Assembly: GCA_030679255.1 (NCBI GenBank)
Contig: JAUXTO010000030.1
Location: 3,420-67,419 of the forward strand
DNA length: 64,000 nt
From: Candidatus Gottesmanbacteria bacterium
Lineage (GTDB): Bacteria; Patescibacteriota; Microgenomatia; UBA10105; UBA927
Direction of reading: 5' to 3'
Part shown: piece by piece, positions 17,507 through 58,253 of the stretch
Layout of the letters: each line of letters starts with the position of its first letter
Numbering within the stretch: position 1 is the stretch's first letter
Position numbers and translations under genes: made by a program
The notes under the pieces: generated by a model
Told to the model about the DNA's origin: nothing
Seen by the model: only the letters and a program-made list of their open reading frames with translations
Databases searched by the model: none

Positions 17507-17564
17507 GTCATCCCCGACCCGCTTCGCCGGAGCGTCAGCGAGGCGAGCGTACGCCGGAAATGAC
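17507..17564. repeat. family-3 palindromic element module (intergenic, after pheT)
   Basis: gtcatccccgacccgcttcgccggagcgtcagcgaggcgagcgtacgccggaaatgac. Confidence 0.55.
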
Positions 17565-24032: not shown

Positions 24033-26153
24033 ATGGATCTCACCCTTGCCACTCCCGTCCAATATGTCCCCCGCGTAGGACCGGCACGAGCCAAGCTCCT
24101 GGCCAAACTCGGAATCGAAACGGTCCACGACCTTCTGTATTACATTCCGTTCCGCTATGATGATTTCTCGATTGTGTCTCCGATTGCCAAAGTACGTCCG
24201 GGTGAAACGGTCACAATTGGCGGCACGGTCACGGCATTTCATAACGCCTTCACCAAATCCGGCAAAAAAATGCAGGAGGTAAAAGTAAGCGACGAGAGTG
24301 GCACACTTGAGGTCATCTGGTTTAATCAGCCCTTCCTCGTCCGGGTTTTACCGGTTGGTACCATCGTTCGACTTGCCGGCAAAATTGACTGGTACGGCCA
24401 CAAACTCGTCATGTCCTCTCCCTCCTACGAGGTGACAGGGCGAGACCCTGTCAATGTACCTCCTGCTTATTCAGCGATATCGCCAATAATGACAGGGTCT
24501 CGCCCTGTCATTCAAAGTCTTCATACCGGCCGGCTTGTTCCGGTCTATTCAGAAACTGCAGGGCTGACGTCCAAATGGTTGCGGGGCAGGATTTCATTTG
24601 TTTTAGAAACGGTCTTAAAACATCTGAACGATACTATACCGGAGTCTGTCCAATCCGATCACCATCTCGTGCCACTCGCTCGTGCAATTCAATCAGTTCA
24701 CTTTCCGGATTCGATCGTACGGTCCGAAACCGCACGCCGGCGGCTCGCGTTTGATGAACTATTTTTCCTACAACTGCGCGCATGGCATGAACGTCGCGTC
24801 TGGGAACTATCAAAAAAATCCCATGCGTGCAGGATAGACGAAAAAAAAGTCACCGAACTCATCGCCTCGCTCCCGTTTACCCTGACGGATGATCAACATG
24901 GATCGATTAAAGAAATCTTGCATGATTTGACGAGAACCTACCCCATGAACCGGCTGCTGGAAGGCGATGTGGGATCCGGTAAAACCGTCGTTGCGATGAT
25001 TGCCATGTATGTAGCCCATCTCAATGGGTTACAGTCTGTCCTTATGGCGCCCACACAAATACTGGCGGAACAACATCATAAAACTATTAAAGGTTTTCTT
25101 GAACCGTTCGGTATCTCTGTTGCCTTAATCACCGGAAATCGAAGCATGAATCAGGAATCAGGAATCAGGGTAAAACTGCATCCCGGTATTCTCGTCGGTA
25201 CTCATGCCCTCCTCTCTAAAAAAATCAAATACCAACGGTTGGGTCTTGTGGTCATCGATGAACAACAACGCTTCGGGGTCGTGCAACGAGGGACACTCGA
25301 AGAAATGACGAAGCGGGGAAATACTCCCCATTTGCTCACCATGACCGCAACTCCCATTCCGCGGACTATTGCCCGTACGATCATGGGAAATCTGGACCTC
25401 TCGGTTCTGGCAACCATACCCGGCGGCCGGAAAAAAATTAAAACGTGGGTCGTTCCGAACGAAAAGCGGGACAAAAGCTATCCCTGGATCACGCAGCAAA
25501 TCAACCAAACCGGCGGCCAAGTATTCGTCATCTGTCCCCTGATCGATGAATCAGAAACCCTTTTCACCGCAAAGGCCGCCACAACCGAATATATCCGTCT
25601 CAAATCCCTATTTCCGGAACTTCAACTTGGCCTCCTCCATGGCCGCATGAAACCAAAAGAAAAAACTGAAGTTCTCGACGCATTCCGGCGGGGTGACATC
25701 CACATGCTTGTGGCCACCCCCGTCGTCGAGGTAGGTATCGACATACCCAACGCAACAATCATGGTCATCGAGGCGGCCGAACGCTTCGGCCTGTCCCAAC
25801 TCCACCAACTCCGCGGCCGGGTAGGGAGGGGAGACCTGCAGTCATATTGTTTATTGTTTACCGAACAGGGAGAAGAACGTACCCTCACCCGTCTCAAATC
25901 CATGGAAACCACGCATAGCGGGCCGGTCCTGGCGGACATAGACCTCCAACTTCGGGGTCCGGGTGAGCTTTTCGGCACGCGCCAACATGGGATACCGGAC
26001 CTCCATGTAGCGCGTTGGACGGATACAGCCCTTATCGCTGAAACAGGAAAATCCGTGAAAGAATTGGTGGCCAGTGACCCCTCCCTCACTGCTTTTCCCC
26101 TCTTGAGAGACAAGCTCGGAGAGAGTACAATAAAAACTATAACAGTTGATTAA
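24033..26153 (+). CDS. recG: ATP-dependent DNA helicase RecG
   Basis: Wedge domain, helicase motif I GDVGSGKT, DEQQRFG, motif VI QLRGRVGRG. Two family-2 palindromes (24433, 24490) and an AATCAGG x3 tandem (25147) lie in frame. An alternative start is 24015. Confidence 0.9.
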   Translation: MDLTLATPVQYVPRVGPARAKLLAKLGIETVHDLLYYIPFRYDDFSIVSPIAKVRPGETVTIGGTVTAFHNAFTKSGKKMQEVKVSDESGTLEVIWFNQPFLVRVLPVGTIVRLAGKIDWYGHKLVMSSPSYEVTGRDPVNVPPAYSAISPIMTGSRPVIQSLHTGRLVPVYSETAGLTSKWLRGRISFVLETVLKHLNDTIPESVQSDHHLVPLARAIQSVHFPDSIVRSETARRRLAFDELFFLQLRAWHERRVWELSKKSHACRIDEKKVTELIASLPFTLTDDQHGSIKEILHDLTRTYPMNRLLEGDVGSGKTVVAMIAMYVAHLNGLQSVLMAPTQILAEQHHKTIKGFLEPFGISVALITGNRSMNQESGIRVKLHPGILVGTHALLSKKIKYQRLGLVVIDEQQRFGVVQRGTLEEMTKRGNTPHLLTMTATPIPRTIARTIMGNLDLSVLATIPGGRKKIKTWVVPNEKRDKSYPWITQQINQTGGQVFVICPLIDESETLFTAKAATTEYIRLKSLFPELQLGLLHGRMKPKEKTEVLDAFRRGDIHMLVATPVVEVGIDIPNATIMVIEAAERFGLSQLHQLRGRVGRGDLQSYCLLFTEQGEERTLTRLKSMETTHSGPVLADIDLQLRGPGELFGTRQHGIPDLHVARWTDTALIAETGKSVKELVASDPSLTAFPLLRDKLGESTIKTITVD
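24433..24453. repeat. family-2 palindrome TGACAGGG-NNNNN-CCCTGTCA (in recG, encodes VTGRDPV)
   Basis: tgacagggcgagaccctgtca. Confidence 0.75.
24490..24510. repeat. family-2 palindrome (in recG, encodes MTGSRPV)
   Basis: tgacagggtctcgccctgtca. Confidence 0.75.
25147..25168. repeat. heptamer micro-tandem repeat (GAATCAG)x3 inside recG
   Basis: gaatcaggaatcaggaatcagg. Confidence 0.6.
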
Positions 26154-26162
26154 ATCTCAATG

Positions 26163-26240
26163 TCCAAATCACAATGACCAACAAGGAGTAAGGATTTTGT
26201 AATTTATTGGTCATTGAGATTTGGATATTGGGATTTGAAA
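26163..26240. repeat. family-4 hairpin (tccaaatcacaatgaccaa ... ttggtcattgagatttgga), recG terminator region
   Basis: 18-bp stem with one mismatch. The downstream atttgga/atttgaa units link it to the 43882 and 58254 copies. Confidence 0.55.
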
Positions 26241-26250
26241 CAAAGCGTAT

Positions 26251-26457
26251 ATGGCTCCATTACCCAAACGAAGACATAGCTCGAGACGCGGAGGCAAACG
26301 GAATGCCGCCTGGCTCAAGGCATTTACCCTCCCGAGTATCATCGCGTGCGGCCAATGTGGGATGTTCCGCATCCCTCACCGTGCATGCAAATCCTGCGGA
26401 TGGTATGACGGAAAAGTCACCGTACCACAAAAAGTCAAACATACCAAAAAGAAATAA
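26251..26457 (+). CDS. rpmF: 50S ribosomal protein L32
   Basis: N-terminal PKRRHSSRR and Zn-ribbon CGQCG...CKSCG. Confidence 0.85.
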   Translation: MAPLPKRRHSSRRGGKRNAAWLKAFTLPSIIACGQCGMFRIPHRACKSCGWYDGKVTVPQKVKHTKKK

Positions 26458-26463
26458 GCGTCC

Positions 26464-26814
26464 ATGAAAACCTCCCAAGATCCCCGTCACCAACATCGGA
26501 TTGACCGGATGCAACAGTTATTTGCTCACGCGTTTCAGGCAAGTACTGCAGATCATTCTATTGCTGATATCCTGCCGCATATTAGTGCCCTCGATAGCGC
26601 GGTACAAGATGCAGCCCCGGAGTGGCCAACGGATAAAATTGCTAAAATTGATCTTGCTATTTTGCGTCTTGCCGCCTATGAACTCGTCATCGAAAAAAAA
26701 GAACCCCCTAAAGTCATCATCGATGAAGCCATCGAGCTTGCTAAATCGTATGGTAATGAAAACAGTCCAAAATTTGTCAACGGCGTATTAGGTACCATAC
26801 TAAAAACACTATGA
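26464..26814 (+). CDS. nusB: transcription antitermination factor NusB
   Basis: 116 aa, all-helical, C-terminal FVNGVLG motif. Confidence 0.75.
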   Translation: MKTSQDPRHQHRIDRMQQLFAHAFQASTADHSIADILPHISALDSAVQDAAPEWPTDKIAKIDLAILRLAAYELVIEKKEPPKVIIDEAIELAKSYGNENSPKFVNGVLGTILKTL

Positions 26815-27497
26815 CATTTGACGATCTCCAAAAAACAATCGGTGTCACGTTTACGGATCCGGAGCTTTTAAAAGCTGCATTTTATCACCGCTCGTACCTC
26901 AACGAATCGCACGGAGTGAATGAGTCCAACGAACGGTTGGAATTTTTAGGCGATGCCGTATTATCATTTCACACTTCGCATTTTCTCTATGCCAAATACC
27001 CTACGGAACCCGAGGGGACACTCACCAATATCAGAAGCAGTCTCGTCAAAACCAAAAGCCTTGCCGATAGCGCGCACGAACTTCACCTTGGGGATCTCTT
27101 ATTTTTAAGCCGCGGCGAAGAAGATTCCGGAGGACGCACCAATAGTTCGCTCCTTGCGGACACCTTTGAGGCTCTATTGGGTGCCATATTTCTGGATCAA
27201 GGTAGTACGGTTGCCCGGGAATTTTTAGAAAAACATCTCTATCTCAAAGTCGAGGATATCGTAAAAAATAAATCCTACATTGATTATAAAAGTCTCCTAC
27301 AGGAAATCATCCAAAGTGAAAGCCGTATCTCACCCACGTATACGGTCACAAAAAGCGAAGGACCGGATCATGCGAAGACATTTTGGGTTGAAGCAAAAGC
27401 CGAAACCCGGGTGCTTGGCAGTGGCATGGGCAAATCCAAACAAGAAGCGGAAAATGCCGCCGCGACGAATGCGCTTGCCGCAATGGGCAAACTTTGA
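26811..27497 (+). CDS. rnc: ribonuclease III
   Basis: Signature ERLEFLGDAVL and a C-terminal dsRBD. Confidence 0.9.
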   Translation: MTFDDLQKTIGVTFTDPELLKAAFYHRSYLNESHGVNESNERLEFLGDAVLSFHTSHFLYAKYPTEPEGTLTNIRSSLVKTKSLADSAHELHLGDLLFLSRGEEDSGGRTNSSLLADTFEALLGAIFLDQGSTVAREFLEKHLYLKVEDIVKNKSYIDYKSLLQEIIQSESRISPTYTVTKSEGPDHAKTFWVEAKAETRVLGSGMGKSKQEAENAAATNALAAMGKL

Positions 27498-27512
27498 TAG
27501 AATGGTGGTTCT

Positions 27513-27740
27513 ATGGTAAAAATCCGTCTCACGCAAACAGGCACAAAAAATAGAAAAACCTATAGACTCGTTGCTATGGAAGAAGGAAAACGACGCGATG
27601 GACGGGCAATAGAAATTTTAGGCTTTTATAATCCGCTCGTCCAACCCCCCCAAGTGAGCATCAAACGTGACCGTGTGGACTACTGGCTTTCCGTCGGGGC
27701 CCAGCTGACGCCAGCCGCAGAGAAGTTAGTAAAAAACTAA
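27513..27740 (+). CDS. rpsP: 30S ribosomal protein S16
   Basis: MVKIRLTQTGTKNRKTYRLV is canonical S16. Confidence 0.9.
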   Translation: MVKIRLTQTGTKNRKTYRLVAMEEGKRRDGRAIEILGFYNPLVQPPQVSIKRDRVDYWLSVGAQLTPAAEKLVKN

Positions 27741-27741
27741 T

Positions 27742-27990
27742 ATGAAAGATACCCTCCTTTTTCTCGTGGCCTCAATTGTGGATCATCCCGATGACGTATC
27801 CGTCATCGAAGAGATCAATGAAGATCGTACGATTCTTCGCCTAACCTGCCACCCTGAAGACATGGGTAAAGTCATCGGAAAAAGCGGCCGGATCATCCGG
27901 GCAATCCGGGATCTGGTCAAACTCATCGCGGCCAAACGCGGAGTATACGCCGATGTGGAGTTAGTAGAAAATAATCCAATAAAGGAATAA
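27742..27990 (+). CDS. KH-domain RNA-binding protein (YlqC/UPF0109 family)
   Basis: VIGKSGRIIRAIRDL is a KH GxxG-type motif. Sits in the canonical position after rpsP. Confidence 0.8.
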   Translation: MKDTLLFLVASIVDHPDDVSVIEEINEDRTILRLTCHPEDMGKVIGKSGRIIRAIRDLVKLIAAKRGVYADVELVENNPIKE

Positions 27991-28073
27991 TAGAATAAAC
28001 AAATAAGAGAATACAAATACTGCAGCTCCATTTGATTATTCCATTATTTCGTTATTCTCTTATTCGTTTATTA
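27975..28073. repeat. family-5 AT-rich interleaved inverted-repeat element (second copy)
   Basis: ggaataat ... aataagagaata ... attattcc ... tattctcttatt (A-B-A'-B' order). Overlaps the stop of the KH gene. Confidence 0.55.
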
Positions 28074-28083
28074 TCCTCCTTGT

Positions 28084-28776
28084 ATGCTCATCACGATCCT
28101 CACCCTCTTCCCTGAAATGTTTATCGGCCCATTCGACTACTCGATCGTCAAGCGCGCGCAGGGTAAAGGAAAGGTAACCATACAAACAATCAATATCCGT
28201 GACTATGCCAATGACGCATATAAATCCGTTGACGACCGCCCCTACGGCGGGGGAGTGGGGATGATTATGAGAGTCGATGTGATCGACCGGGCGCTACAAC
28301 AGACAATAAACAATAAGCAAAAAACAACAACGAAAATAGTTCTTCTTGATCCTCGCGGCACTACCTTCACGCAAGCGAAAGCCAGGACGCTCGCCAAACT
28401 CGACCATCTCGTTCTCATCTGCGGACACTATGAGGGCATTGATGAACGGGTGAAATCGCTCGTCGATGAGTCTCTTTCTATCGGCGATTATGTCCTTACG
28501 GGCGGAGAACTTCCTGCAATGGTCATGACCGATGCAATCGTCCGCCTTCTCCCCGGTGTATTAAAAGAAGGGGTCACTCAATCCGAATCGTATTCATTCG
28601 AAATTCGAAATTCGAAATTCGAAATTCCAATGTTAGAATATCCCCAATACACCCGTCCAGAAGTATACAACGGCATGAAGGTGCCGGAAGTTCTCCTCTC
28701 CGGTAATCATAAAAAAATAGAGCAGTGGAAAAAAGATCACGCTACCGCGAAAAAGGGTCGCGTTTACCGCCCGTAA
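28084..28776 (+). CDS. trmD: tRNA (guanine37-N1)-methyltransferase
   Basis: SPOUT-family TrmD motifs. Contains a (TTCGAAA)x4 tandem in frame at 28598..28625. Confidence 0.9.
   Translation: MLITILTLFPEMFIGPFDYSIVKRAQGKGKVTIQTINIRDYANDAYKSVDDRPYGGGVGMIMRVDVIDRALQQTINNKQKTTTKIVLLDPRGTTFTQAKARTLAKLDHLVLICGHYEGIDERVKSLVDESLSIGDYVLTGGELPAMVMTDAIVRLLPGVLKEGVTQSESYSFEIRNSKFEIPMLEYPQYTRPEVYNGMKVPEVLLSGNHKKIEQWKKDHATAKKGRVYRP
28598..28625. repeat. heptamer micro-tandem repeat (TTCGAAA)x4 inside trmD
   Basis: ttcgaaattcgaaattcgaaattcgaaa encodes FEIRNSKFEI. Confidence 0.65.
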
Positions 28777-29482
28777 CTGGCGTGAGAGATTCTGTGAAAC
28801 CCCCAGATACATCCGGATATTGGATGATTTTAGCAAGAATTGCTTCTTCTTTTTGAGAAAGCGGGGTAACCTGCGCCTGTATGCTCCCGACTTTCGTCGG
28901 CAATGGTTGATAGAAAGCAGTAAGGGCAAGCCGCACCTGGGTGACTCCTGTGGCGCTTATGGATATATCAAAATTCGTCACGTCAAATATCCTCCGGATA
29001 GCATTAATTTTTCCGACAAAACCCCTGATCTGATCGTACGTTCCGGATGCGGTAAGCACAAACGGGAGCGCACTGGCACCAATCTTTTTTTCTGACGCGC
29101 TCTGCCGGATAGTGGCAGACATACTTGCGAGTGTTCCGGGGCTTGCGAGACTCAAGTCAATGATACTGACCCCGGTCTGTTGAGAGAGTCCCTCGATAGT
29201 GCTAAAAACCGTCGGTACGGACTTTTCCTGAGGTACTGCCGACACAAGAAGAATAAGCCTATCTCGGATATCCTCCTCGTTGAGGGCCACAAGAAGCGCA
29301 AGTTTACCCTGAAGCGCACCCACATCCCTCTCTACCGCTTTGAGACTATCATAGAGATCGCCGGTTGCCCGGATGCCGGGAATGACCGCAAATACCAGGG
29401 CAAGCGTCCCAAAAAACAAAATGACTCCGGATATCACAAATCCCTGATATGTACGTAAAAATCTTCTGATATATCGATCCAT
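28742..29482 (-). CDS. pilO: type IV pilus assembly protein PilO-like
   Basis: N-terminal TM helix plus coiled coil. Sits downstream of pilM-pilN in the same operon orientation. Confidence 0.5.
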   Translation of the reverse strand: MDRYIRRFLRTYQGFVISGVILFFGTLALVFAVIPGIRATGDLYDSLKAVERDVGALQGKLALLVALNEEDIRDRLILLVSAVPQEKSVPTVFSTIEGLSQQTGVSIIDLSLASPGTLASMSATIRQSASEKKIGASALPFVLTASGTYDQIRGFVGKINAIRRIFDVTNFDISISATGVTQVRLALTAFYQPLPTKVGSIQAQVTPLSQKEEAILAKIIQYPDVSGGFTESLTPVTGGKRDPFSR

Positions 29483-29483
29483 A

Positions 29484-30029
29484 TTAAAATATCGGTGTAA
29501 AGATCAGTGATACTTTTACCACACCATCCTTCTGGTACTGCACGGATTCAAGAATTGGGTTGGCAATTGTTTTACGGGCTACTTCCGTGAGTACGCGTTC
29601 GACGACACGGAACGTGTCTTCTAGTGTCTTGTTGGTAATACTTAAATTTACTTCATCGTTCTCACCGACGGAAAACGAGGTTCTGGTCCCCGAAGCCGTA
29701 ATACGGTCAATCAAATCCAATACACCGAGCCACGAACGCTGCCCTTCCAGAATCCGACCCGTTATCGCGATCCTATCTTTAAGTGACGCAAAAAGTCCTT
29801 CCTTGCGCAGTTGTCCGCCTATGGCCGTCATAAGGGTCTGTTTTTGCGCGGACATAGCCGCGAATTGACTGCGTAGGATTGCGTAACCTATTCCAAAAAA
29901 TAATCCTGATAACACGAGAACGATGAGAAGGACTATGCTTATGGTGCGCAGTTGCCCATCTATGGCGACCCATTGCGGCGTGAGCATAGTCTTGGCTTTT
30001 AGAAGATTAATATCGGAGGATTTTGCCAT
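29484..30029 (-). CDS. pilN: type IV pilus assembly protein PilN-like
   Basis: MAKSSDINLL start, single TM, ~180 aa. Follows pilM. Confidence 0.55.
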   Translation of the reverse strand: MAKSSDINLLKAKTMLTPQWVAIDGQLRTISIVLLIVLVLSGLFFGIGYAILRSQFAAMSAQKQTLMTAIGGQLRKEGLFASLKDRIAITGRILEGQRSWLGVLDLIDRITASGTRTSFSVGENDEVNLSITNKTLEDTFRVVERVLTEVARKTIANPILESVQYQKDGVVKVSLIFTPIF

Positions 30030-30054
30030 ACATGTACCCGATTCACGATCGCTT

Positions 30055-31074: not shown

Positions 31075-31080
31075 ATGGGA

Positions 31081-31926: not shown

Positions 31927-31970
31927 AGATATATCTATTGTAGTCAGAATCGGAAATTGATTGCAAGAGC

Positions 31971-32510: not shown

Positions 32511-32511
32511 A

Positions 32512-32970: not shown

Positions 32971-32992
32971 TTTGTTACTTTGTTACTTTGTT

Positions 32993-33896: not shown

Positions 33897-33900
33897 AATC

Positions 33901-34305: not shown

Positions 34306-35033
34306 AGTATATTCATCCACCATTGGATTAATTGCTTCCCCCAACCCAAAGCGATGATCGTTCCCAACACAAGAAACGGACCAAACGCAATGTGTGCGCG
34401 GAGCTGGGTTTTGCCCGTTAAAATAAGTATGACACCCACTACCGCACCCGTCAAGAATGCGAGGTAGGAAGCGACTATAATATTTGGAAAACCAAGAAGT
34501 AATCCCATCAGAAACGCAAATTTCACATCCCCCAGTCCCATACCTTTTCCGCGTGTCACAAGCCATAAAAGGAAAAAAAATCCTCCCGCGCCAAGAGCCG
34601 ATAGCCACAAGGCCTGGCCTTGAAGGAGGACGCCGACTATCCCAATGATGACCATGCTATCCGGAATGATCTGGTATTTAAAATCAGCAACGAAGATCAC
34701 CAGCAGTGAACAAAAAAACAGCAGCCATCCCACCAAAGCCAGGCTTTGGGGAAATTCTAAAGCCTGGCTTTGAAGATAAACAAATCCCACAGCCGTCACC
34801 AATTCCACCACCGGATACTGCCAGAATAATTTTTCATGACATCTCCGGCATCGACCACGTTGGAGAAAAAAAGAGAGAAGGGGAATGAGCTCATACCACC
34901 GAAGCACTTTTTTACAATGATCGCAAACAGACCGTCCTGTGATCACATCTTCCCCCCGCGGCAGCCGGTCAATGAGGACATTGAGAAACGATCCTACTGC
35001 CAGACCAAAGATAAATACTATCAATTCCATCAT
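34302..35033 (-). CDS. pilD: prepilin peptidase (A24 family, PilD)
   Basis: N-terminal Zn-finger CDHC...CRRCH and polytopic TM domain. Three in-frame family-1-type palindromes (LQSQALEF, PQSLAL, LQGQALWLS). Confidence 0.85.
   Translation of the reverse strand: MMELIVFIFGLAVGSFLNVLIDRLPRGEDVITGRSVCDHCKKVLRWYELIPLLSFFLQRGRCRRCHEKLFWQYPVVELVTAVGFVYLQSQALEFPQSLALVGWLLFFCSLLVIFVADFKYQIIPDSMVIIGIVGVLLQGQALWLSALGAGGFFFLLWLVTRGKGMGLGDVKFAFLMGLLLGFPNIIVASYLAFLTGAVVGVILILTGKTQLRAHIAFGPFLVLGTIIALGWGKQLIQWWMNIL
34604..34627. repeat. family-1 palindrome variant inside pilD
   Basis: agccacaaggcctggccttgaagg. Confidence 0.65.
34734..34775. repeat. two family-1-related palindromes (CCAAAGCCAGGCTTTGG and AAAGCCTGGCTTTGAAG) inside pilD
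   Basis: ccaaagccaggctttgg gga aattc taaagcctggctttgaag. Core AARGCCWGGCYTT shared with GGCACAAGGCCTGGCCTTGAGG. Confidence 0.6.
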
Positions 35034-35066
35034 TTCTTAGTATAATCGCTACATCGGACTATTACT

Positions 35067-37322
35067 ATGAAGATCATCAAGCGATACATCTGGGATATCC
35101 TGGCGCTCACTGCAATAGCAACGGTTATTGGTATTTTTTTCTTCCGCTTCTTTTGGCCGGAACCGCAATTACTCGTTACTCCGGATTTTGGCAGAAGCGA
35201 TGCCTGGCATTTCAGCTTTGCGACGAAATTTGCGCTCTCTGAAAGTCTATCCCGCGGACAACTCCCGCTCTGGGAACCCCGGATGGGAATGGGGTTTCCA
35301 TTGTTTGCTGAAGGCCAAGTAGGCGCGCTCTTTCTCCCCAATCTCCTCCTCATGACTCTCCCGAGTCTGACAGGGTTGAACCCTGTCACCGCTTATAATG
35401 CTACGTACGTTATTCTGTTTCTCACATTGGGGTGGGGGATGTATGCATGGCTTCGCGTCATTGGATGTTCGCGGTTGGCGAGTTTATTCGGGGGGGTAAC
35501 CATCATGTTCTCCGGACAAACCATCCCTCGGCTGCCGCATCATACCCTTCTTCAATCCCTGAGCATGACGCCGATCCTCCTGGCGCTTGCTTATCGCGTT
35601 CTTACGGGAAAAAGTGCTATCTGGATATCCTTATTCGCCCTCGGCTTAAGCCAACAGCTCTTCACCGGGTCGCCGCAACCAGCGCTCCTCACGCTTTTCA
35701 TGATTGGCATATACACCGTCCTGACCTGCTATAGACAGGGTCTCGCCCTGTCACTTAAGCCTGTACTGCGCATACTATTGAGTATACTACTGGCTATCGG
35801 CATGTCTGCTATTCAACTATTGCCATCAGCTGAAATGCTCTCCCAATCCACATCCCCCCAGGGTTTTTCGCCGGAAGAGGCAAGCTATTATTCTCTTCCG
35901 CTCGTTCATCTGAAAACACTTGTGAGCCCGTTCATCCTGGGTAACCCCAAAAACGGAACATACCCACCATTTACCACATTTGACGGGAGTATTTTTTGGG
36001 AAAATAACCTGTACATCGGATGGCTACCATTCATTCTCGCGATCTTCGGCATTATTAGCCTCGCAAGGCAGTGCCTTGTAGCCTCGCAAGGCAGTGCCTT
36101 AAAAAATAAATATCTACCCATTTTTTTTCTCGTAACACTTATCGCATCATTCCTCCTTATGCTCGGAAAGTATTCTCCCGTTTATCTCGTCTATTCCGTC
36201 TGGCCGCTCAATCTTTTTCGGGTTCCATCCAGGTTTGCCTGGATATTCCTCATGACCATCGTATCTGCTTCTGCGTGGGTTATAACGCAAATGACCGGAA
36301 GGACCGGAAGATGGAATAAACTCTTTTCTGTGATCGTGAGCATTGTGGTCGGCATTCATGCGTATCAACTCATGGGTACCTGGTGGGACTATCACGCAAT
36401 CGCATCGGCACGTCTCTGGCTCGCCGCATCACCATTGATGAAAAAAATACAAGCTACCAAGGGCCCGGTCCGCACGATCGGCGTGGAACTCGTCCACAAC
36501 AAACAATTTCTCAAAACGGGGTGGACTCCCAATGCCGACACCTATCGATTCCTCACAAACGTTCCTTCTCCCAATGGCAATATCTACTGGAATATAACCC
36601 AGTCGGATGTCTATGCCGGCCGATTTCTCAAACGGTCATCTCTCGTAGAATCACTCTTAGGATCAGAATTAAAATCATCGGAAACCGTGGCAACAATAAG
36701 TGCCACGGCCAAACGCCTGCTTGATCTTTATCATGGCAATATCCTCGTGAGTACAATTCCCTTAGATATAAAAAATCCACTCTCAACGCTCGACGCGACC
36801 ACAAGCGCTGGGGTCACCATCACGGCGTATCGCAACGCGCAAGCGCTGCCCAGGGCCTATCTTGCCACACAAACAGTATTTACCCCGACTCTTTCCAAAG
36901 CTGCCGATACTCTGGCAAATCAATCGTTTATACCGGGAGTAAGCGTTCTCATCCACGACCAATCGCTTGTGCTGAATTCCGGAAATGATGAAGAAGGAGG
37001 AACGGTCAACATTACGCAGGATACACCGACGCGCGTCATGATGACGGCCAATGTCTCGGCGCCGCAAGCTATTCTCGTCTTTGGTGATACCTCTTATCCG
37101 GGGTGGAGGGCATCGATCAATGGAATGCAAACTCCGATCTATCCCGTCAACATCAAGGAGCGGGGAATTCTACTCACAAAAGGCAACCATGAAATAATTT
37201 GGACTTATGAACCCCTGGCATTTATCTTCGGCGCACGGATTTCGCTCGTGACCCTCATCCTGACTATTGCCCTCCCAATGGTATTTCCTCTTTTTGCCGC
37301 GCGGCTTCGTACATCCGCATAA
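35067..37322 (+). CDS. large polytopic membrane protein, YfhO-like (putative glycosyltransferase)
   Basis: 751 aa, >12 predicted TM helices, then a large extracytoplasmic C-terminal domain. Two family-2 palindromes in frame at 35368 and 35734. Confidence 0.4.
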   Translation: MKIIKRYIWDILALTAIATVIGIFFFRFFWPEPQLLVTPDFGRSDAWHFSFATKFALSESLSRGQLPLWEPRMGMGFPLFAEGQVGALFLPNLLLMTLPSLTGLNPVTAYNATYVILFLTLGWGMYAWLRVIGCSRLASLFGGVTIMFSGQTIPRLPHHTLLQSLSMTPILLALAYRVLTGKSAIWISLFALGLSQQLFTGSPQPALLTLFMIGIYTVLTCYRQGLALSLKPVLRILLSILLAIGMSAIQLLPSAEMLSQSTSPQGFSPEEASYYSLPLVHLKTLVSPFILGNPKNGTYPPFTTFDGSIFWENNLYIGWLPFILAIFGIISLARQCLVASQGSALKNKYLPIFFLVTLIASFLLMLGKYSPVYLVYSVWPLNLFRVPSRFAWIFLMTIVSASAWVITQMTGRTGRWNKLFSVIVSIVVGIHAYQLMGTWWDYHAIASARLWLAASPLMKKIQATKGPVRTIGVELVHNKQFLKTGWTPNADTYRFLTNVPSPNGNIYWNITQSDVYAGRFLKRSSLVESLLGSELKSSETVATISATAKRLLDLYHGNILVSTIPLDIKNPLSTLDATTSAGVTITAYRNAQALPRAYLATQTVFTPTLSKAADTLANQSFIPGVSVLIHDQSLVLNSGNDEEGGTVNITQDTPTRVMMTANVSAPQAILVFGDTSYPGWRASINGMQTPIYPVNIKERGILLTKGNHEIIWTYEPLAFIFGARISLVTLILTIALPMVFPLFAARLRTSA
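35368..35388. repeat. family-2 palindrome variant (TGACAGGGTTGAACCCTGTCA)
   Basis: Encodes LTGLNPVT inside the YfhO-like CDS. Confidence 0.7.
35734..35754. repeat. family-2 palindrome
   Basis: agacagggtctcgccctgtca encodes RQGLALSL. Confidence 0.7.
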
Positions 37323-39240: not shown

Positions 39241-39254
39241 GAGGAGTTGGAGAT

Positions 39255-39764: not shown

Positions 39765-39817
39765 AATTATTTCCTCTCTATCTGGTGTATCACCCATGAA
39801 TATATCTTGTCAATAGG

Positions 39818-41029
39818 TCACTTGAACTGGGCCGTCAGATTATAAATCGGCGTGATGACGGAAATGACGATAAACCCGACCCCAACCCCCAATACAATCA
39901 TAATGATGGGTTCTATGGCCGTCGTCAAACCCCGGACAAGGTGCTCGGATTCGCTTTCAAAATACCGGGAAAGCTTGACAAGCGTATCATCGAGTTTCCC
40001 CGTTTCTTCACCAACTTTCATCATCTGAGAGACAATCGGCGGGAAAACGTCGTACTGGGCAAACGTATCCCCTAAGGGAAAACCCTTCTCCACTTTTTTA
40101 CTGATTTCATCGATAGCATTACGGAAACGGACATTGCCCAACGAATCCCGGAGCGTCTGGAGTCCCTGTAAAATATGAATACCAGCACTGATAAGCATAG
40201 CCAAGGTTCGCGTAAACTCGACCAGGAGTACTTTTTTCGTAAGATCACCAAACAAAGGTAATTTTAGGGTAATACTGTCCACCATGAGTTCACCAATAGG
40301 AGTTTTCTTCCACTTGCCGTATGCGATGGAGAGCCCCACCATGATGGCGATCATGAGCCACCAAAAATGCACAAAAAACGTTGAGAGTGATATGAGAATT
40401 TTCGTGGGAGTCGGTAAATCAATGCCAAAATCTTTATAGAGATCCGTGAGTTTCGGGACGACCACCGTCATCATGACCATGACGACGGCGACCATACCGA
40501 TCATGATGATGACCGGATAGACCATGGCCCCTTTCACTTTGCTCCGGAATTCGGCCTGAGATTCGAGCGTGTCAGCCAGTCGCGCGAGCACTTTATCGAG
40601 GGTACCGGAAGATTCACCGGCGCGAACGAGCGCAATATAAATAGGACTAAACGCTTCAGGGTACTTGGCTAATGAATCTCCTAAATTTCCGCCGCCCGTG
40701 ATTTGCACCTCAACATCGGCGATCAAACGGACAAACGCAGGATTCGTAGTCTGTGAGCGAAGAATCGTGAGCGCATCCGGAAGCGATAGACCGGCGACAA
40801 TCATGGTGGCAAGCTGCCGGGTAAAGGCAACCACATCCCCATAGCCGACTTTTTTAAACTTCGCAAGGATATCCGAAACTCCGGATTGTGCGTGGGTTTC
40901 TTTGATGGAAACGACAAAAAGCTCCCGGGACCGAAGCAATTTGACGGCACTATCCGCGCTTGGGGATTCTACGGTGCCGTCTGCCACCTCCCCATCTTTA
41001 TCCCGCGCTTTGTAGGTAAAAAAAGCCAT
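39818..41029 (-). CDS. pilC: type IV pilus platform protein PilC (GspF family)
   Basis: 403 aa with duplicated GspF domains and three TM segments. Confidence 0.9.
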   Translation of the reverse strand: MAFFTYKARDKDGEVADGTVESPSADSAVKLLRSRELFVVSIKETHAQSGVSDILAKFKKVGYGDVVAFTRQLATMIVAGLSLPDALTILRSQTTNPAFVRLIADVEVQITGGGNLGDSLAKYPEAFSPIYIALVRAGESSGTLDKVLARLADTLESQAEFRSKVKGAMVYPVIIMIGMVAVVMVMMTVVVPKLTDLYKDFGIDLPTPTKILISLSTFFVHFWWLMIAIMVGLSIAYGKWKKTPIGELMVDSITLKLPLFGDLTKKVLLVEFTRTLAMLISAGIHILQGLQTLRDSLGNVRFRNAIDEISKKVEKGFPLGDTFAQYDVFPPIVSQMMKVGEETGKLDDTLVKLSRYFESESEHLVRGLTTAIEPIIMIVLGVGVGFIVISVITPIYNLTAQFK

Positions 41030-41030
41030 C

Positions 41031-42086
41031 TTACATTCCCTTCAGCAGTCGATTCATGTCCTCTGGCCGGAGCGCGTAGGAGATGGCCGTTTCCGCCGAT
41101 ATTTTGCCTTCTTTCACGGCTTTGGCAAGGGCGGTTTCCAAAAGCATCATGCCGAGCTCACCCGACGTTTGAATGATGTTATCGACGAGATGACTCTTTC
41201 CTTCGCGGATGGTTGTCCGGACCGCAGGACTTGCCGTGAGTACTTCAGCGATAGCCACACGGCCACCTCCTGCCGCAGGAATCAGACGCTGTGCGAGGAT
41301 TCCTTCTAGGACGCTCGAGAGCTGCATGCGGACCTGGGGTTGTTGATTTTCCGGAAAAACGTCGACGATGCGGTCGATGCTCTGAGCTGCGGAGTTGGTG
41401 TGGAGGGTGGCAAAGACTAAATGTCCGGTTTCGGCAACCGTGAGGGCCGCAGCGATCGTTTCATAATCGCGCATTTCGCCGACGAGCACGACATCCGGAT
41501 CTTCCCGGAGCGAACTTCTCAGTGCCGCGTTCCATGAATGCGTATCGCTATGCATTTCGCGTTGGGACACGATCGAAAGACCCTTCGGATAAATAAACTC
41601 AATCGGATCCTCGACGGTGACTATGTGATTGGCCGTCTTCATATTGATCGTGTTGATCATGGCAGCCAAGGTCGTCGATTTTCCATGACCCGTGGGCCCG
41701 GTGACGAGGACCAAACCCTGGCGGAGCTTCACAAATTCGTGACAAATAGCAGGGAGACCCAATTCATCAATTGTTTTAATTTTGGCCGGAATGAGGCGGA
41801 ATGAGGCGGCAATCGTACCTTGCTGATAATACAAATTGGTACGGAACCGGCCCGTATCGCTTGTCACCGAGAGATCAATTTCTTTATTCGTCGTAAGCAG
41901 TTCTTTTTGTTCCGGAGTGAGCACGCCCGTCGCAAGCCCCTCGGTATCCTGGGACGTCAAAACGGATTCAGAAGGAATAGGTGCAAGTTTCCCACTGACC
42001 CGCATCATGGGGGGAAATCCGACAATAAAGTGGAGATCATTGGCTTCAAGCCGTGCGGCTTCAGAAAAAAGTTGTTGGATATCCAT
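41031..42086 (-). CDS. pilT: type IV pilus retraction ATPase PilT
   Basis: 351 aa. Walker A GPTGHGKSTT. Close N-terminal match to the PilT consensus. AIRxLIRE-type motif AVRTTIREGK. Confidence 0.85.
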   Translation of the reverse strand: MDIQQLFSEAARLEANDLHFIVGFPPMMRVSGKLAPIPSESVLTSQDTEGLATGVLTPEQKELLTTNKEIDLSVTSDTGRFRTNLYYQQGTIAASFRLIPAKIKTIDELGLPAICHEFVKLRQGLVLVTGPTGHGKSTTLAAMINTINMKTANHIVTVEDPIEFIYPKGLSIVSQREMHSDTHSWNAALRSSLREDPDVVLVGEMRDYETIAAALTVAETGHLVFATLHTNSAAQSIDRIVDVFPENQQPQVRMQLSSVLEGILAQRLIPAAGGGRVAIAEVLTASPAVRTTIREGKSHLVDNIIQTSGELGMMLLETALAKAVKEGKISAETAISYALRPEDMNRLLKGM

Positions 42087-42092
42087 AAAGTA

Positions 42093-43814
42093 TTAATCCT
42101 GCGCCACGCGCAAGACTTCTTCAAGGGTCGTCACCGCTTCAATCGCTTTGAGATACCCATCCTGTTTCATAGTAATCATGCCCTCGTGTATGGCAAGTTT
42201 TTCTATCTCCGCCATGGGAGCACGCTGCAAAATAAGCTTACTGAGCGTATCGCTTACCGGAAATACTTCATAGATACCCATGCGTCCGAGATACCCCGAT
42301 CCGCCACAGGATTGACACGGTTGGCCATTGACCGTACCCGTTCCGCGATACAGTTTAATCGGTTTATCCGATGGGATGAGGTTACCAAGCACATTCCGGA
42401 TATCCGCGGCAACCGCCGCATCAGGATCATATTCTTCTTTGCAGGTTGGGCATACGCGCCGTGAAATGCGCTGCCCGACGACAGCGTTAAGCGCCGAGGC
42501 GACGAGAAATGGTTCTGCACCAAGATCCAGAAGCCGGGGGATGGCGCCGGCCGCGTTATTGGTGTGCAGCGTCGAAAAAACCAAATGTCCGGTGAGAGCA
42601 GCCTGTATGGCCAAGTCCGTCGTTTCCGTGTCGCGGATTTCTCCGACCAGGATGATGTTCGGGTCTTGGCGGAGAAAAGACCGGAGTCCCGTGGCAAACG
42701 TGAGACCAGCCGCAGGATTTATTTGCACCTGATTGACCCCGCTGATTTCATACTCAACCGGATCCTCAAGCGTCATGATATTGACCCGGGGATTATTGAG
42801 TTTAGCAAGGACTGCGTAAAGTGTGGTCGTTTTCCCCGAACCCGTCGGCCCGGTGACGAGATTGATGCCATGCGGCCGGGAAATACTCGTCTCTAAATTT
42901 TTGAGGGACAAACCGCGCAGTCCCAACTCCTGCATGGTGGGAATCCCGCCGGATTTTTTGAGAAGCCGCATGACCACTTTTTCGCCGTGAACTGTGGGGA
43001 GCGTCGATACCCGAAGATCCACTTCATTATCTCCCATTTTAAAGTTAAAGCGTCCATCCTGCGGGATACGCTTCTCGTCAATTTTCAAATCTGCGAGTAT
43101 TTTGATCCGGGACACAACCGCGTCTTGGAGCCCTCTGGGGAGCGCCAACCGTTCCTGCAAAATTCCATCGACGCGATAGCGTACCCGTGTCTCTCCGATT
43201 TGCGGTTCGATGTGGATATCCGAAGCGCGTATCCGCATCGCCTGCTCAAGAACCGCAGATACAATTTGAGCAATCGGCGCTTCACGGATAACCTCACCGA
43301 GTTTCCCGGCTTCATAGGTCTTTATCGCCGACGGGGTCGTTTCTTTAAGCGCCGCAGTAACATCTGCACCAAGATTTTGGTTATAGAGCTCATTGATGTG
43401 GGCGATGATATCCTCGCTCGTTGCCATGAAGGGCTTAATGGTCTTCCCGGATTTCTTTTCCAAAAATTCTATAACCTGAAAGTCTAAGGGGTCTTTCATA
43501 GCCACGGACAATAGTTTCGTCGGTTCATCAAAAAGAAAAGGAATGAGCACATACCGCCGGGCAACAGGCTCAGGGATAAATTCGACAACATCCGGAGAAA
43601 TTGCTTTACCCTCAAGCATGACAAACGGGATATTGAGCGCCTTGGCCCGGGCGGCAACGAGAACCGCATCGGAGACGAATTGTCGTTTAGAGAGGAGCGA
43701 TTCAATGGGAGTACCGGTATTGAGCGATTCTAGCCGAATGGCGTCCGCCTGCGCCTGAGTAAGGTGGGCGTCAGCGGTCAGTATGGTCAGTAATTCCTGG
43801 GCAGTCGTGGGCAT
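42093..43814 (-). CDS. pilB: type IV pilus assembly ATPase PilB (GspE family)
   Basis: 573 aa. Walker A GPTGSGKTTT. Tetracysteine Zn motif CPTCK...CQSCGGSGY. Confidence 0.9.
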   Translation of the reverse strand: MPTTAQELLTILTADAHLTQAQADAIRLESLNTGTPIESLLSKRQFVSDAVLVAARAKALNIPFVMLEGKAISPDVVEFIPEPVARRYVLIPFLFDEPTKLLSVAMKDPLDFQVIEFLEKKSGKTIKPFMATSEDIIAHINELYNQNLGADVTAALKETTPSAIKTYEAGKLGEVIREAPIAQIVSAVLEQAMRIRASDIHIEPQIGETRVRYRVDGILQERLALPRGLQDAVVSRIKILADLKIDEKRIPQDGRFNFKMGDNEVDLRVSTLPTVHGEKVVMRLLKKSGGIPTMQELGLRGLSLKNLETSISRPHGINLVTGPTGSGKTTTLYAVLAKLNNPRVNIMTLEDPVEYEISGVNQVQINPAAGLTFATGLRSFLRQDPNIILVGEIRDTETTDLAIQAALTGHLVFSTLHTNNAAGAIPRLLDLGAEPFLVASALNAVVGQRISRRVCPTCKEEYDPDAAVAADIRNVLGNLIPSDKPIKLYRGTGTVNGQPCQSCGGSGYLGRMGIYEVFPVSDTLSKLILQRAPMAEIEKLAIHEGMITMKQDGYLKAIEAVTTLEEVLRVAQD

Positions 43815-43881
43815 ACTCCATCCATTATCAACTAGCGATCATATATAATGCAAGATGCGGGAACAAACCGGAGCGCAAAAA

Positions 43882-44010
43882 TTCCAAGCACCAAGCAACA
43901 AATACCAAACAAACTCAAAGCACCAATGTGCAAAAAAATAAAACGGTTTCGAACATTTGAATTTGGAATTTTGTATTTGTTTGGAATTTGGTGCTTGAGA
44001 TTTGGAATTT
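43882..44010. repeat. family-4 long hairpin (ccaagcaccaagcaacaaataccaaacaaa ... tttgtatttgtttggaatttggtgcttgag)
   Basis: Intergenic, between pilB and holB. Confidence 0.6.
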
Positions 44011-44023
44011 AAATTTTAAATGT

Positions 44024-44725
44024 ATGCATGCATATATCATTACTGGGGGCACAACCAAAGAGCGTAGTGAAAAAATTCAATCGCTTTTACAAGAGCGTGC
44101 TATTTCTCCGCACGACATTACGACCATTCTCCCTGATCCCAGCACAATCGGTATCGATCCGATCCGCGCGGTGCTACCTCGACTATCTGTGAGTCCGATG
44201 GGTGGTACTACTCACGCGGTAATCATACATTTGGCTCATACCATGACCCCCGAGGCCCAAAATGCATTCCTCAAAACACTCGAAGAGCCGCCTGGCGAAG
44301 CGATAATCTATCTGGAAACCGATCAGCCTGAAGCCCTCCTGCCGACGATTCTGTCCCGCTGTCAGATCATCCGTCTCACCGACAATAGTGACAGGGTCTC
44401 GCCCTGTCAAAAAGATCTGGATGCATCGGCCCAGTGTTTAAAAACCATTTATCAACTCCTCGCGGCTTCAGTGGGGGAGCGGCTTAAAATCATCGATATC
44501 TCCGTCAAAACCCGTGACGATGCCCTCGCCTTCGTCAATCAGTGCATTCAATCCCTTCACCATCATCTTCGCATGACAGGGTCTCGCCCTGTCACCCTTC
44601 CTCCCTCCTTAAATCTTTCTCAAACAATATCCGCTAAACTTCTCCGTTCTCTCCTCACCGCCCGCACTCAAATCCAGGGTAACATCACCCCCAAACTCGC
44701 CCTTGACGCTGTTTTTCTCTCCTGA
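44024..44725 (+). CDS. holB: DNA polymerase III delta' subunit
   Basis: MHAYIITGG, LKTLEEPP and SRCQ motifs. Two family-2 palindromes in frame (44389, 44574). The TGA stop lies inside a third copy (44723). Confidence 0.7.
   Translation: MHAYIITGGTTKERSEKIQSLLQERAISPHDITTILPDPSTIGIDPIRAVLPRLSVSPMGGTTHAVIIHLAHTMTPEAQNAFLKTLEEPPGEAIIYLETDQPEALLPTILSRCQIIRLTDNSDRVSPCQKDLDASAQCLKTIYQLLAASVGERLKIIDISVKTRDDALAFVNQCIQSLHHHLRMTGSRPVTLPPSLNLSQTISAKLLRSLLTARTQIQGNITPKLALDAVFLS
44389..44409. repeat. family-2 palindrome in holB (encodes DRVSPCQ)
   Basis: tgacagggtctcgccctgtca. Confidence 0.75.
44574..44594. repeat. family-2 palindrome in holB (encodes MTGSRPVT)
   Basis: tgacagggtctcgccctgtca. Confidence 0.75.
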
Positions 44726-44743
44726 CAGGGTTCAACCCTGTCA
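44723..44743. repeat. family-2 palindrome variant supplying the holB stop codon
   Basis: cTGAcagggttcaaccctgtca. Confidence 0.7.
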
Positions 44744-44879
44744 ATCTTCTTTCCCCTGTGCCTATCCCAAAGCTACAACTTCCCAGCAACAATGACCTAT
44801 CCAGGTAACACCATCGACGCGAAACGAATAACATGAAGAAAAAGTTGACAGAGGAGGAGGGGGAGTATGATTTCCGATA

Positions 44880-45356
44880 ATGTATGTACTTATTCCAACA
44901 TCACTGGGAGGAGAGCGCAGCAGTGAACCACCATATGCAAGAACCCCGTTAGATGAAATTCCTGACGATCGGTGGGGAAATATATGGCTGAAGATGAATC
45001 GTCGTCCATACAGTGGTGTGCGCTTGGAATTTGATAGTGAAGAAGCTCGAATACTTGAACAGGCGGGATTGTTTAATCGTTTAATCGGTGGAAAAAAACC
45101 GAACACTGAACACCTAATTACAATTTTAACAGAAACTTTTACACAAGAAGCTGATGGACCAAGCAAAAATGTAACATTTGTTAGACTTACCGGAAAGTTT
45201 GATCAAACTTCAGGCCCAACAACTCCTGACGATACCGTCTTAGGCACAGTCTTTCCCCATGCTTTAACTGATCATTTCAAGCCATTGTTCACAAAATTAG
45301 TTAATAGCGGACGTGCTACAGTTCCAAAGGCATTGCTCAATTCTGTCAATCAATAG
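44880..45356 (+). CDS. hypothetical protein
   Basis: 158-aa ORF with an upstream G-rich RBS and no recognisable motifs. Confidence 0.35.
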   Translation: MYVLIPTSLGGERSSEPPYARTPLDEIPDDRWGNIWLKMNRRPYSGVRLEFDSEEARILEQAGLFNRLIGGKKPNTEHLITILTETFTQEADGPSKNVTFVRLTGKFDQTSGPTTPDDTVLGTVFPHALTDHFKPLFTKLVNSGRATVPKALLNSVNQ

Positions 45357-46080
45357 CCATCTTCCCAATCACGAACTTCGAATCCTCGCCGTAGTCCTCG
45401 ACAAAACTCTCATACGATAGGAAATCCCGATAATCTCTGCGTTGTGCCGATCGAAAATAATCTAAGATATGCTCCGGATGCAACCACGAGGCTTGCTTCA
45501 AGCGCAGATAATACGGATAACTCGAGTATGGATACTCCCTCACACTGACAGGGCGAGACCCTGTCACTTCTTTTGGATTCAAGTGAATGTACCGGGTGAC
45601 ATGAAGGAGATACGAATCGCGATCAATGTACGCCGCTTTATATGGCCCTTGAAACAATGTTCCAATTCGCTTATATCGCTTATTGAAATACATGGAATAG
45701 CTCGTACATATAGCTTGAAGGAAGTTTGCCATACCGTAAGATTCTTTTTGATAAAGCACCAAGTGAAAATGGTTTGGCATCAAACAGTAGGCGAGAAGGG
45801 AGACTTCTTCAGCAAATGAACGCAGTGGCCGTATTCTGACAGGGCGAGACCCTGTCATTTTATCTAACGGATGCTCCAAAACCTTTTTAGGATCCAATTG
45901 AGGAGAAAGGTATGCCTTTAAGAAGCTTAAAAACACCCGATAATCCTGATCGTCAAGGAATATCAACCGCTTTTCGACACCACGATTGTATGCGTGGTAA
46001 TTGCCACCCGCAACATAAAGCTTCACGGTATTTTGCGAAGGCATACACCGATAATAATTGACAGGGCGAGACCTTGTCAA
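45346..46080 (-). CDS. REP-associated tyrosine transposase (RAYT) / IS200-like HUH transposase
   Basis: YHAYNRG...LAYCLMPNHFHLVL...YIHLNP...YPYSSY has the HUH motif and Tyr region. Paralogous to ORF 1..572. Three family-2 palindromes in frame (45546, 45837, 46059), so the true start may be M at 46044. Confidence 0.75.
   Translation of the reverse strand: MTRSRPVNYYRCMPSQNTVKLYVAGGNYHAYNRGVEKRLIFLDDQDYRVFLSFLKAYLSPQLDPKKVLEHPLDKMTGSRPVRIRPLRSFAEEVSLLAYCLMPNHFHLVLYQKESYGMANFLQAICTSYSMYFNKRYKRIGTLFQGPYKAAYIDRDSYLLHVTRYIHLNPKEVTGSRPVSVREYPYSSYPYYLRLKQASWLHPEHILDYFRSAQRRDYRDFLSYESFVEDYGEDSKFVIGKMAID
45546..45566. repeat. family-2 palindrome inside RAYT gene (encodes VTGSRPVSV)
   Basis: tgacagggcgagaccctgtca. 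Confidence 0.75.
45837..45857. repeat. family-2 palindrome inside RAYT gene (encodes MTGSRPVRI)
   Basis: tgacagggcgagaccctgtca. Confidence 0.75.
46059..46079. repeat. family-2 palindrome variant at RAYT 5' end
   Basis: tgacagggcgagaccttgtca. Confidence 0.7.
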
Positions 46081-46112: not shown

Positions 46113-48131
<2,019 letters not shown>

Positions 48132-58248: not shown

Positions 58249-58253
58249 ATAAA

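Follow-up and report, generated by a model that had tools for sequence, protein, structure and literature searches.

A 64,000-nt stretch of DNA from a metagenome-assembled genome (MAG) of Candidatus Gottesmanbacteria, within the Patescibacteria or candidate phyla radiation (CPR), carries ten copies of a 21-bp palindrome, TGACAGGGNNNNNCCCTGTCA, most of them inside protein-coding genes, together with a gene for a Y1/HUH transposase that we call RAYT1. The DNA examined here consists of this stretch, hereafter the window, and of fragments from relatives. We conclude that the palindrome is probably a hairpin of the repetitive extragenic palindrome (REP) type and the partner of RAYT1, a vertically inherited protein resembling the REP-associated tyrosine transposases (RAYTs), which would copy and overwrite it. 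The evidence lies in the identity of these parts, in the insertion of the palindrome relative to orthologous genes, in the synteny of the transposase gene, in a bias of reading frame and in the turnover of the hairpin loops as blocks; we infer that the transposase does the copying and overwriting, and that it still does so today.

Palindrome copies inside genes

The window was searched with the pattern TGACAGGG-N5-CCCTGTCA, allowing up to 2 mismatches. Ten matches were found (8 perfect and 2 with one mismatch), exactly where an earlier note on this DNA had placed them, compared with 0.01 predicted by shuffled sequences. At 3 mismatches no extra copies appear in the 64-kb window, so there are no decayed copies in it. 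All ten are confined to the interval 24.4–46.1 kb, and six of them lie inside the RAYT1 gene (45346–46044) or at most about 1 kb away. The loop is TCTCG/CGAGA in 8 copies and TTGAA/TTCAA in 2. Folding of single-stranded DNA gives each copy a predicted hairpin of 8–9 bp (−8 to −8.6 kcal/mol, z about −5), in agreement with the hairpin expected beforehand. The unit is fully symmetric, its length of 21 nt equals exactly 7 codons, and TGA begins the palindrome on both strands, so that on either strand it closes one frame and leaves two open. Among 25 oriented copies no conserved flank, tag, target motif or target duplication is visible, the only signal being a weak A(−2)/T(+2) preference; a Rfam scan of the window returned one tRNA only, and no Rfam family matches the 21-bp palindrome. 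A sequencing or assembly artefact is excluded, because over 9,995 nt, six copies included, the window has 100% identity to a Logan assembly made from run SRR13727518, and because the same element recurs in many independent assemblies.

Eight of the ten copies are inside genes, one is at the 3' end of holB and one is upstream of RAYT1. Pfam and NCBIfam searches identify the hosts as RecG (800 bits), HolB (DNA polymerase III delta'), a membrane protein with a weak YfhO match and a Y1_Tnp protein, and together with the reading frames they bear out the earlier assignment of two copies to recG, two to the YfhO-like gene, and two to holB with a third supplying its TGA stop codon. In recG (24033..26153, + strand, with 24033 as the most likely start since the NCBI protein has 706 aa) the copies at 24433..24453 (loop CGAGA, read VTGRDPV) and 24490..24510 (loop TCTCG, read MTGSRPV) are inserted after SPSYE, where the wedge domain ends. 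They form an inverted doublet with a 36-nt spacer, similar to a REPIN (REP doublet forming a hairpin), which at 24433..24510 measures 78 nt or 26 codons and is predicted to fold as a single long hairpin (−29.3 kcal/mol, z −10.7). The YfhO-like gene (35067..37322, + strand) contains a copy with the loop TTGAA at 35368..35388, read LTGLNPV, and another, AGACAGGG..., at 35733..35753, which lies in the TGA frame and whose sole mismatch, T to A, turns the TGA into AGA (AGA CAG GGT CTC GCC CTG TCA, read RQGLALS). In holB (44024..44725, + strand; 44024 is the most likely start, a 233-aa gene being called on an identical contig) one copy with the loop TCTCG, at 44389..44409, uses the second open frame and reads DRVSPCQ, another with the same loop, at 44574..44594, reads MTGSRPV, and the TGA of a third, with the loop TTCAA, at 44723..44743, is the stop codon, an arrangement found also in a related locus, L119. 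The remaining copies belong to RAYT1 (45346..46044, − strand). At site 1 (45837..45857) the protein reads HPLDK-MTGSRPV-RIRPL, in a loop before the HUH strand; at site 2 (45546..45566) it reads RYIHLNPKE-VTGSRPV-SVREYPYSSY, in a loop after the helix of the catalytic tyrosine. The last copy, at 46059..46079, has one mismatch and precedes the start codon by 14 nt.

Six of the copies (24433, 24490, 35368, 44574, 45546 and 45837) are read in the frame xTG ACA GGG NNN NNC CCT GTC, or (M/V/L)TGxxPV, and SYEVTGRDPVNVPPAYSAISPIMTGSRPVIQ is an example of a peptide spanning an insert. The claim that all genic copies are read this way is accurate for most of them, the exceptions being 44389 and 35733. 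The same preference extends to other genomes. In loci from Patescibacteria, 25 of 39 exact copies fall in stretches of 150 aa or more that are free of stops, with the frames divided 24 versus 1, and metagenome loci are split 21 versus 2; counted as independent genic sites, about 27 are in the T-G-x-x-P-V frame compared with 1–2 in the other open frame.

Comparison with orthologues indicates how the copies are placed in their hosts. In many RecG orthologues (59–79% identity) the site after SPSYE is empty (E-IGS-N), several have a single copy with the loop RD, PG, LN or SN, and the inverted doublet of 21+36+21 nt is present in four, with P0122, P0154 and P0160 among the proteins that have it; P0121 is 100% identical to the RecG of the window. 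The empty, single and doublet states all occur at exactly one site, between the two blocks that align to the Thermotoga maritima RecG (1GM5), where the wedge domain stops. It is a spot at which inserts repeatedly land or are tolerated. The HolB proteins of loci L122 and L124 are without both internal segments, and both YfhO sites fall in length-variable loops, with the first copy present in P0243 and a degenerate second copy, RQDLALS, in P0247. Judging from these alignments, the genic copies in RecG, HolB and YfhO are segments added in variable loops, as had been anticipated.

The RecG site also accommodates other palindromic inserts, namely EGSHTSMDGSMRSF and QPQGPALS (orthologues P0147–P0152, P0162, P0172 and P0173), and in locus L128 (10001–12103) it holds a GC-rich GCCCGCC...GGCGGGC hairpin. 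We first took QPQGPALS for the same element read in the TGA frame, and it more probably represents the second palindrome family of the window, which is described below with the second RAYT. Some further ideas were set aside. Seeding of the inserts at pre-existing P-V codons fits the YfhO site and does not fit the empty sites of RecG and HolB. A motif selected at the protein level was rejected on three grounds: the third codon positions of the stem do not vary, some copies are intergenic or supply a stop codon, and both strands are used. We also dropped the notion that stem mutations preserving G-T wobble pairs identify the sense strand, which would have pointed to a constraint on RNA, as the window copy at 46059 contradicts it.

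The same stem with varying loops is found in Beckwith-, Blackburn-, Woese-, Shapiro- and other Gottesmanbacteria, and the hairpin and RAYT1 families co-occur across the Microgenomates. An identical stem preceded by a 5' GTAG tag (GTAG-TGACAGGG), with the loop GCAAG/CTTGC, is present in MAGs of Ktedonobacterales and Chloroflexia (loci L008, L010, L015, L017, L018, L024 and about 45 others). The Ktedonobacterales copies are mostly extragenic (13 of 93 are in long stop-free stretches) and include inverted, REPIN-like doublets, CATGACAGGGGCAAGCCCTGTCACTACTATA...TATAGTAGTGACAGGGCTTGCCCCTGTCATG, of about 95–100 nt with copy starts about 74 nt apart. A tblastn search with RAYT1 found no homologue in 53 Ktedonobacterales loci, and the link between the Patescibacteria and the Ktedonobacterales is therefore one of the hairpin alone. 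Single pattern matches in other phyla were dismissed, as about 140–280 chance matches are expected in 596 Gb and some 'Gammaproteobacteria' MAGs appear to be mislabelled relatives. The MAG that contains locus L122 (CAYNJY010000005.1) bears the title 'uncultured Gammaproteobacteria', yet the gene order of this locus (gyrB-RAYT-holB-pilB...) is syntenic with that of the window; the CAYNJY and CAYIWI MAGs (L122 and loci L023, L044, L057, L060 and L071) appear to be mislabelled, the synteny having been seen for L122.

The transposase and the turnover of loops

As a mechanical open reading frame (ORF), RAYT1 has 244 aa (45346..46080). Comparison with 120 homologues shows the true start to be M13 (MPSQNTV..., position 46044), and the copy at 46059 is consequently outside the gene; of the three copies that had been placed within it, those at 45546 and 45837 do belong there. 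Pfam recognizes the protein as Y1_Tnp, and REP_Tyr_transpos is its sole NCBIfam match. The HUH histidines H92 and H94 and the catalytic tyrosine Y152 are invariant across 78 sequences. An AlphaFold 2 model (pLDDT 84) has its best fold match in the PDB with 4ER8, the Escherichia coli TnpAREP in complex with a REP hairpin (E 1.6e-5, TM 0.68), followed by the TnpA proteins of IS608 and ISDra2; at the sequence level, a single-sequence phmmer search of RAYT1 against the PDB gave no match and a profile search gave marginal IS200-family matches only. The Y1_Tnp domain, the match to 4ER8 and the flanking hairpins sustain the proposal that the hairpins form a REP-like family and have a cognate transposase of the RAYT type.

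The gene order gyrB-RAYT1-holB is found in five species, represented by the window, L119–121, L122, L124/125 and L145. Because its position is fixed, RAYT1 behaves as a RAYT and not as an insertion sequence, and the conserved order indicates vertical inheritance at a fixed chromosomal position. Between holB and RAYT1 the window has an ORF of 158 aa without a Pfam match (44880–45356, + strand); the corresponding position holds a called gene of 151 aa in L119, of 138 aa in L124 and of 142 aa in L145, and none in L122.

Hairpins are part of the architecture of this gene. In four species (the window, L119, L122 and L124) one hairpin precedes the RAYT ATG by 13–14 nt, and in L119, L122 and L124 there are four in all, one upstream, two in frame, and one that supplies the stop codon with its TGA. 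L012 likewise has a copy at each of these positions, but there 12 nt lie between the end of the upstream copy and the ATG, and the ORF is broken into two. The hairpin overlapping the stop codon, seen in L119, L122, L124 and L012, has been lost in the window and in L145. At each of the two internal sites a 7-aa segment is present, without any gap, in all 120 homologues examined (52–100% identity), and in 97 of the 120 at least one of the segments reads xTGxxPV. In the model both internal sites are predicted to be loops, with site 2 directly after the helix of the catalytic tyrosine. The earlier suggestion that copies invade the RAYT gene is thus not upheld: the internal copies, filled in 120 of 120 homologues, are old fixed features, and the upstream copy keeps its distance from the ATG in four species. 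The loop dipeptides at the two internal sites are usually alike within a protein and unlike between proteins. In RAYT relatives the spacer from YIHxNP to YPWSSY is canonically 10 aa, with a range of 8–29 aa. Read as protein, the 3' arm together with the TTGAA loop (TTGAACCCTGTCA) gives L-N-P-V. In canonical relatives this motif comes after the catalytic tyrosine, a hint that the coding sequence of the transposase itself may have been the origin of the hairpin.

A second RAYT, cut by the start of the window (3–572, − strand), scores 66.8 bits with NCBIfam REP_Tyr_transpos (cut-off 80). It is accompanied by another palindrome family, GGCACAAGGCC-W-GGCCTTGAGGCT, with one copy just upstream of the gene (598–610) and one in frame (151–163), which is read QPQGLALR after YIHINPVEMFDS, at the same post-tyrosine site as site 2 of RAYT1. 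The two paralogous RAYTs of the window thus contain two unrelated palindromes at the same place.

The loops of the hairpins change much faster than their stems. Between the window and L145, with a background DNA identity of about 85%, five shared copies show 1 difference in 80 stem positions versus 9 in 25 loop positions. In holB, with loops given on the coding strand, the first internal site has TCTCG in the window and a decayed copy with 3 mismatches in L119; at the second, TCTCG of the window corresponds to TTCAA in L119 and to CCAGG in L145; and the stop-codon copy has TTCAA in both the window and L119 and CCTCG in L145. L119, L122 and L124 each have as their dominant loop that of their own RAYT, and a single Hainich sample yielded, at equal coverage, both an LN-type RecG insert (L129) and an LN-type RAYT (L120). 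Perfect stems and loops swapped as blocks indicate that the hairpin copies undergo ongoing homogenisation, and since loops are moreover uniform within a genome, such concerted evolution calls for a process of copying and replacement. In locus L134 (3610–3675), copies with the loops CGAGA and TTGAA occur 45 nt apart in one 245-aa ORF. A metagenome scan for the TCTCG variant recovered 14 loci, too few for a population test.

Explanations and known systems

The following scenario would account for these observations. Each copy would fold, as single-stranded DNA, into a hairpin of 8–9 bp; RAYT1 would bind the hairpin, cut at its foot and rejoin the ends, and hairpin cassettes would be copied to new places and, above all, over existing copies. 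As the sequence itself shows, copies landing in permissive loops survive because the unit is 7 codons long and has TGA in only one of three frames on either strand, and at gene ends the TGA of the palindrome provides the stop codon. The compact genome presumably leaves little intergenic room, and selection would retain almost exclusively the xTG-ACA-GGG-NNN-NNC-CCT-GTC frame, whose T-G-x-x-P-V peptide is turn-like. A role of the RAYT as the copier is supported by the clustering of copies near its gene and by the second, parallel RAYT and palindrome system in the window.

Several observations weigh against this scenario. RAYT1 scores 37.8–38 bits, below the curated 80-bit cut-off of NCBIfam REP_Tyr_transpos (NF047646), and the element is a single 21-nt hairpin with no visible flanking guide sequence, target motif or target duplication; unlike the REP/REPIN-RAYT systems, it has neither a GTAG/CGTC tag nor a conserved flank. 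The homogenisation is incomplete, because the holB stop copy and a YfhO copy in the window retain the TTGAA-type loop. The sites analysed are all common to diverged species, those in holB and RecG at 15–30% DNA divergence, and no insertion polymorphism was found between near-identical genomes, leaving current mobility unproven. Recombination or template switching could, without any enzyme of this kind, be the source of the loop turnover. The description of the system in the earlier note as active or recently active accordingly goes too far: no new insertions were demonstrated, the holB and RecG sites are shared across that divergence, and what the data show is homogenisation.

The conservation of sites across species 15–30% diverged would be expected if the copies were frozen relics with a host function, the RAYT having been domesticated and the hairpins kept as structural signals in DNA or RNA with no copying today. 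Such signals might bind the RAYT or another protein, pause translation or transcription, or regulate the RAYT through the hairpin 14 nt before its ATG; the fixed distance of that hairpin from the ATG, the synteny of the RAYT, which resembles that of a host gene, and the lack of decayed copies in the window even at 3 mismatches all agree with this view. Yet selection acting on each copy separately does not explain why 3–5 of 5 loop bases are swapped as a block while stems stay identical, it leaves the uniformity of loops within a genome unexplained, the RecG site is empty, single or double among close relatives, and a common function is hard to imagine for loops of unrelated proteins. We therefore consider frozen relics rather unlikely. 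A loop flanked on either side by 8 bp of identical stem is also a plausible substrate for hairpin-promoted template switching or short-patch gene conversion, with the Y1 protein as a bystander. Intrastrand switching at a perfect palindrome would be expected to flip loops, as seen in TCTCG/CGAGA and TTGAA/TTCAA, and it would need no transposase-type target motif or tag, of which none is visible. A bystander, however, would not be expected in view of the two palindrome families of the window, each near, flanking and inside its own RAYT paralogue, of the co-occurrence of the hairpin and RAYT1 families across Microgenomates, and of the best structural match of RAYT1 being an enzyme solved bound to such a hairpin, and homogenisation without the transposase seems to us improbable.

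Type IV pilus genes are present in the window, and the uptake signals of other bacteria can likewise be intragenic, in frames that are tolerated, so the palindrome might be imagined as a DNA uptake signal or as another sequence-specific protein recognition signal related to competence, the nucleoid or restriction. The density of copies is however low and clustered (10 copies at 24.4–46.1 kb of a 64-kb window), the loops vary between related genomes and the stems do not, the association with the RAYT gene is tight, and the same hairpin has a GTAG tag and REPIN-like doublets in Ktedonobacterales. A recognition signal of this type is very improbable.

The partnership of hairpin and RAYT1 invites two extensions. 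It is conceivable, although we hold it with considerable doubt, that Patescibacteria RAYT genes hold in-frame hairpins as 'master copies' at fixed loop positions and that the enzyme continuously overwrites the loops of all dispersed copies, those within essential proteins included, with repeat and enzyme co-evolving as one vertically inherited unit. The hairpin-RAYT partnership may also predate the split between Patescibacteria and Chloroflexota, because the identical stem has the GTAG tag and REPIN-like doublets in Ktedonobacterales.

The system works like a REP-RAYT pair but lacks three features of that family: the tag, the extragenic location and the curated score. In common with REP/REPIN-RAYT systems (TnpAREP 4ER8, the Pseudomonas REPINs, the GTAG/CGTC REPs), it combines a short GC-rich hairpin with a Y1/HUH transposase, which here is syntenic and flanked by its own repeats, and it has an inverted doublet in recG. 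REPs are predominantly extragenic, whereas the copies described here are mostly intragenic; the unit is a fully symmetric 21-mer of 7 codons, the genic copies are nearly all in one frame, the hairpin lies in frame at two conserved positions of the transposase gene, the transposase is under the curated NCBIfam RAYT cut-off, and the host belongs to the CPR. With neither a GTAG/CGTC tag nor a score above the cut-off, the biochemistry may differ from that of E. coli TnpAREP. The IS200/IS605 elements (IS608 and ISDra2 TnpA) are similar in fold, in catalytic motifs and in the hairpins that bracket the transposase gene; unlike in that family, the gene here is at a fixed position in five species instead of forming a multi-copy mobile unit, and what is dispersed are bare hairpins rather than whole elements.

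Rickettsia palindromic elements (RPEs) were invoked in the earlier note, and the likeness applies to in-frame insertion into genes that stay functional. We know of no transposase gene cognate to RPEs. They are in-frame palindromic insertions found in functional housekeeping genes of a reduced genome, at positions compatible with the protein fold (PMC10969869, PMC3733652), are about 150 bp long and are restricted to Rickettsia (2024 review, PMC10969869). The unit here is 21 bp and has a cognate RAYT, and the resemblance is an analogy only. Intragenic REPs themselves have been known since 2013: Di Nocera et al. 2013 (PMC3733652) described REPs within genes, many of which serve replication and repair, as well as REP ends donating stop codons and GTAG REPs in Chloroflexi, and the present copies likewise reside in replication and repair genes and in some cases give stop codons. 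Literature searches for the motif, and for RAYT or REPIN together with Patescibacteria or CPR, found no prior description. The features for which we found none are the CPR host, the tag-less unit of 7 codons, the near-exclusive use of a single frame, the hairpins built into the transposase gene, and the loop cassettes tracking the enzyme.

If confirmed, these findings would extend REP-RAYT biology to the ultra-small bacteria of the CPR and would show the fate of repeats when intergenic space is nearly gone, namely residence inside proteins. They could provide a natural system for the copying and overwriting of a minimal hairpin by a Y1 enzyme, with one frame-neutral size and loop variants matched to enzyme variants, and also for studying the tolerance of proteins to recurrent 7-aa inserts and for dating REP-RAYT partnerships.

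Further repeats in the window

Four further genic copies of the GGCACAAGGCC-W-GGCCTTGAGGCT family, read LGTRPGLEA and similar, occur in long ORFs, two in a PfkB kinase gene (5931–5943 and 5997–6009), one in pheS (14412–14424) and one in a pilin-like gene (34609–34621). A repeat of about 40 nt, CCCGCTTCGCCGGAGCGnCAGCGAGGCGAGC, is present in gyrB (46649–46688) and at 17509–17548, 8164–8203 and 59369–59408; its gyrB copy encodes a 10-aa segment that is found in L119 too and is absent from the GyrB of L122 and L124. Hairpins of the families ATCCCGGC-N4-GCCGGGAT and ATCCTCGGG-N5-CCCGAGGAT are located at 16990–17009, 17030–17052, 8228–8247 and 59329–59351, and two hairpins in pheT form a 20-aa insert absent from three orthologues. 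Because such other families also extend GyrB and PheT, in-frame palindromes are a general trait of this genome. The palindrome families add 7–26 residues to RecG, HolB, GyrB, PheT and other proteins and can confuse the alignment and annotation of CPR proteins.

A perfect hairpin with a 15-bp stem, AAGACATCGTCTTGC GAG GCAAGACGATGTCTT, lies at 5495–5527 inside a PfkB-family ORF. AT-rich blocks, AAATTCCAAGCACCAA... and ...TTTGGAATTTGGTGCTTGAGATTTGGAATTT, recur at 43879–44010, 58251–58384, 4985–5102 and 26207–26239; some are just upstream of genes, including holB, and could be promoter or leader elements. An 8-nt-periodic array of the TTATTCGTTTATTC type occurs twice (3082–3146 and 28024–28088), and a tandem 27-nt duplication is found in two different ORFs, at 8851–8904 and 57048–57101.

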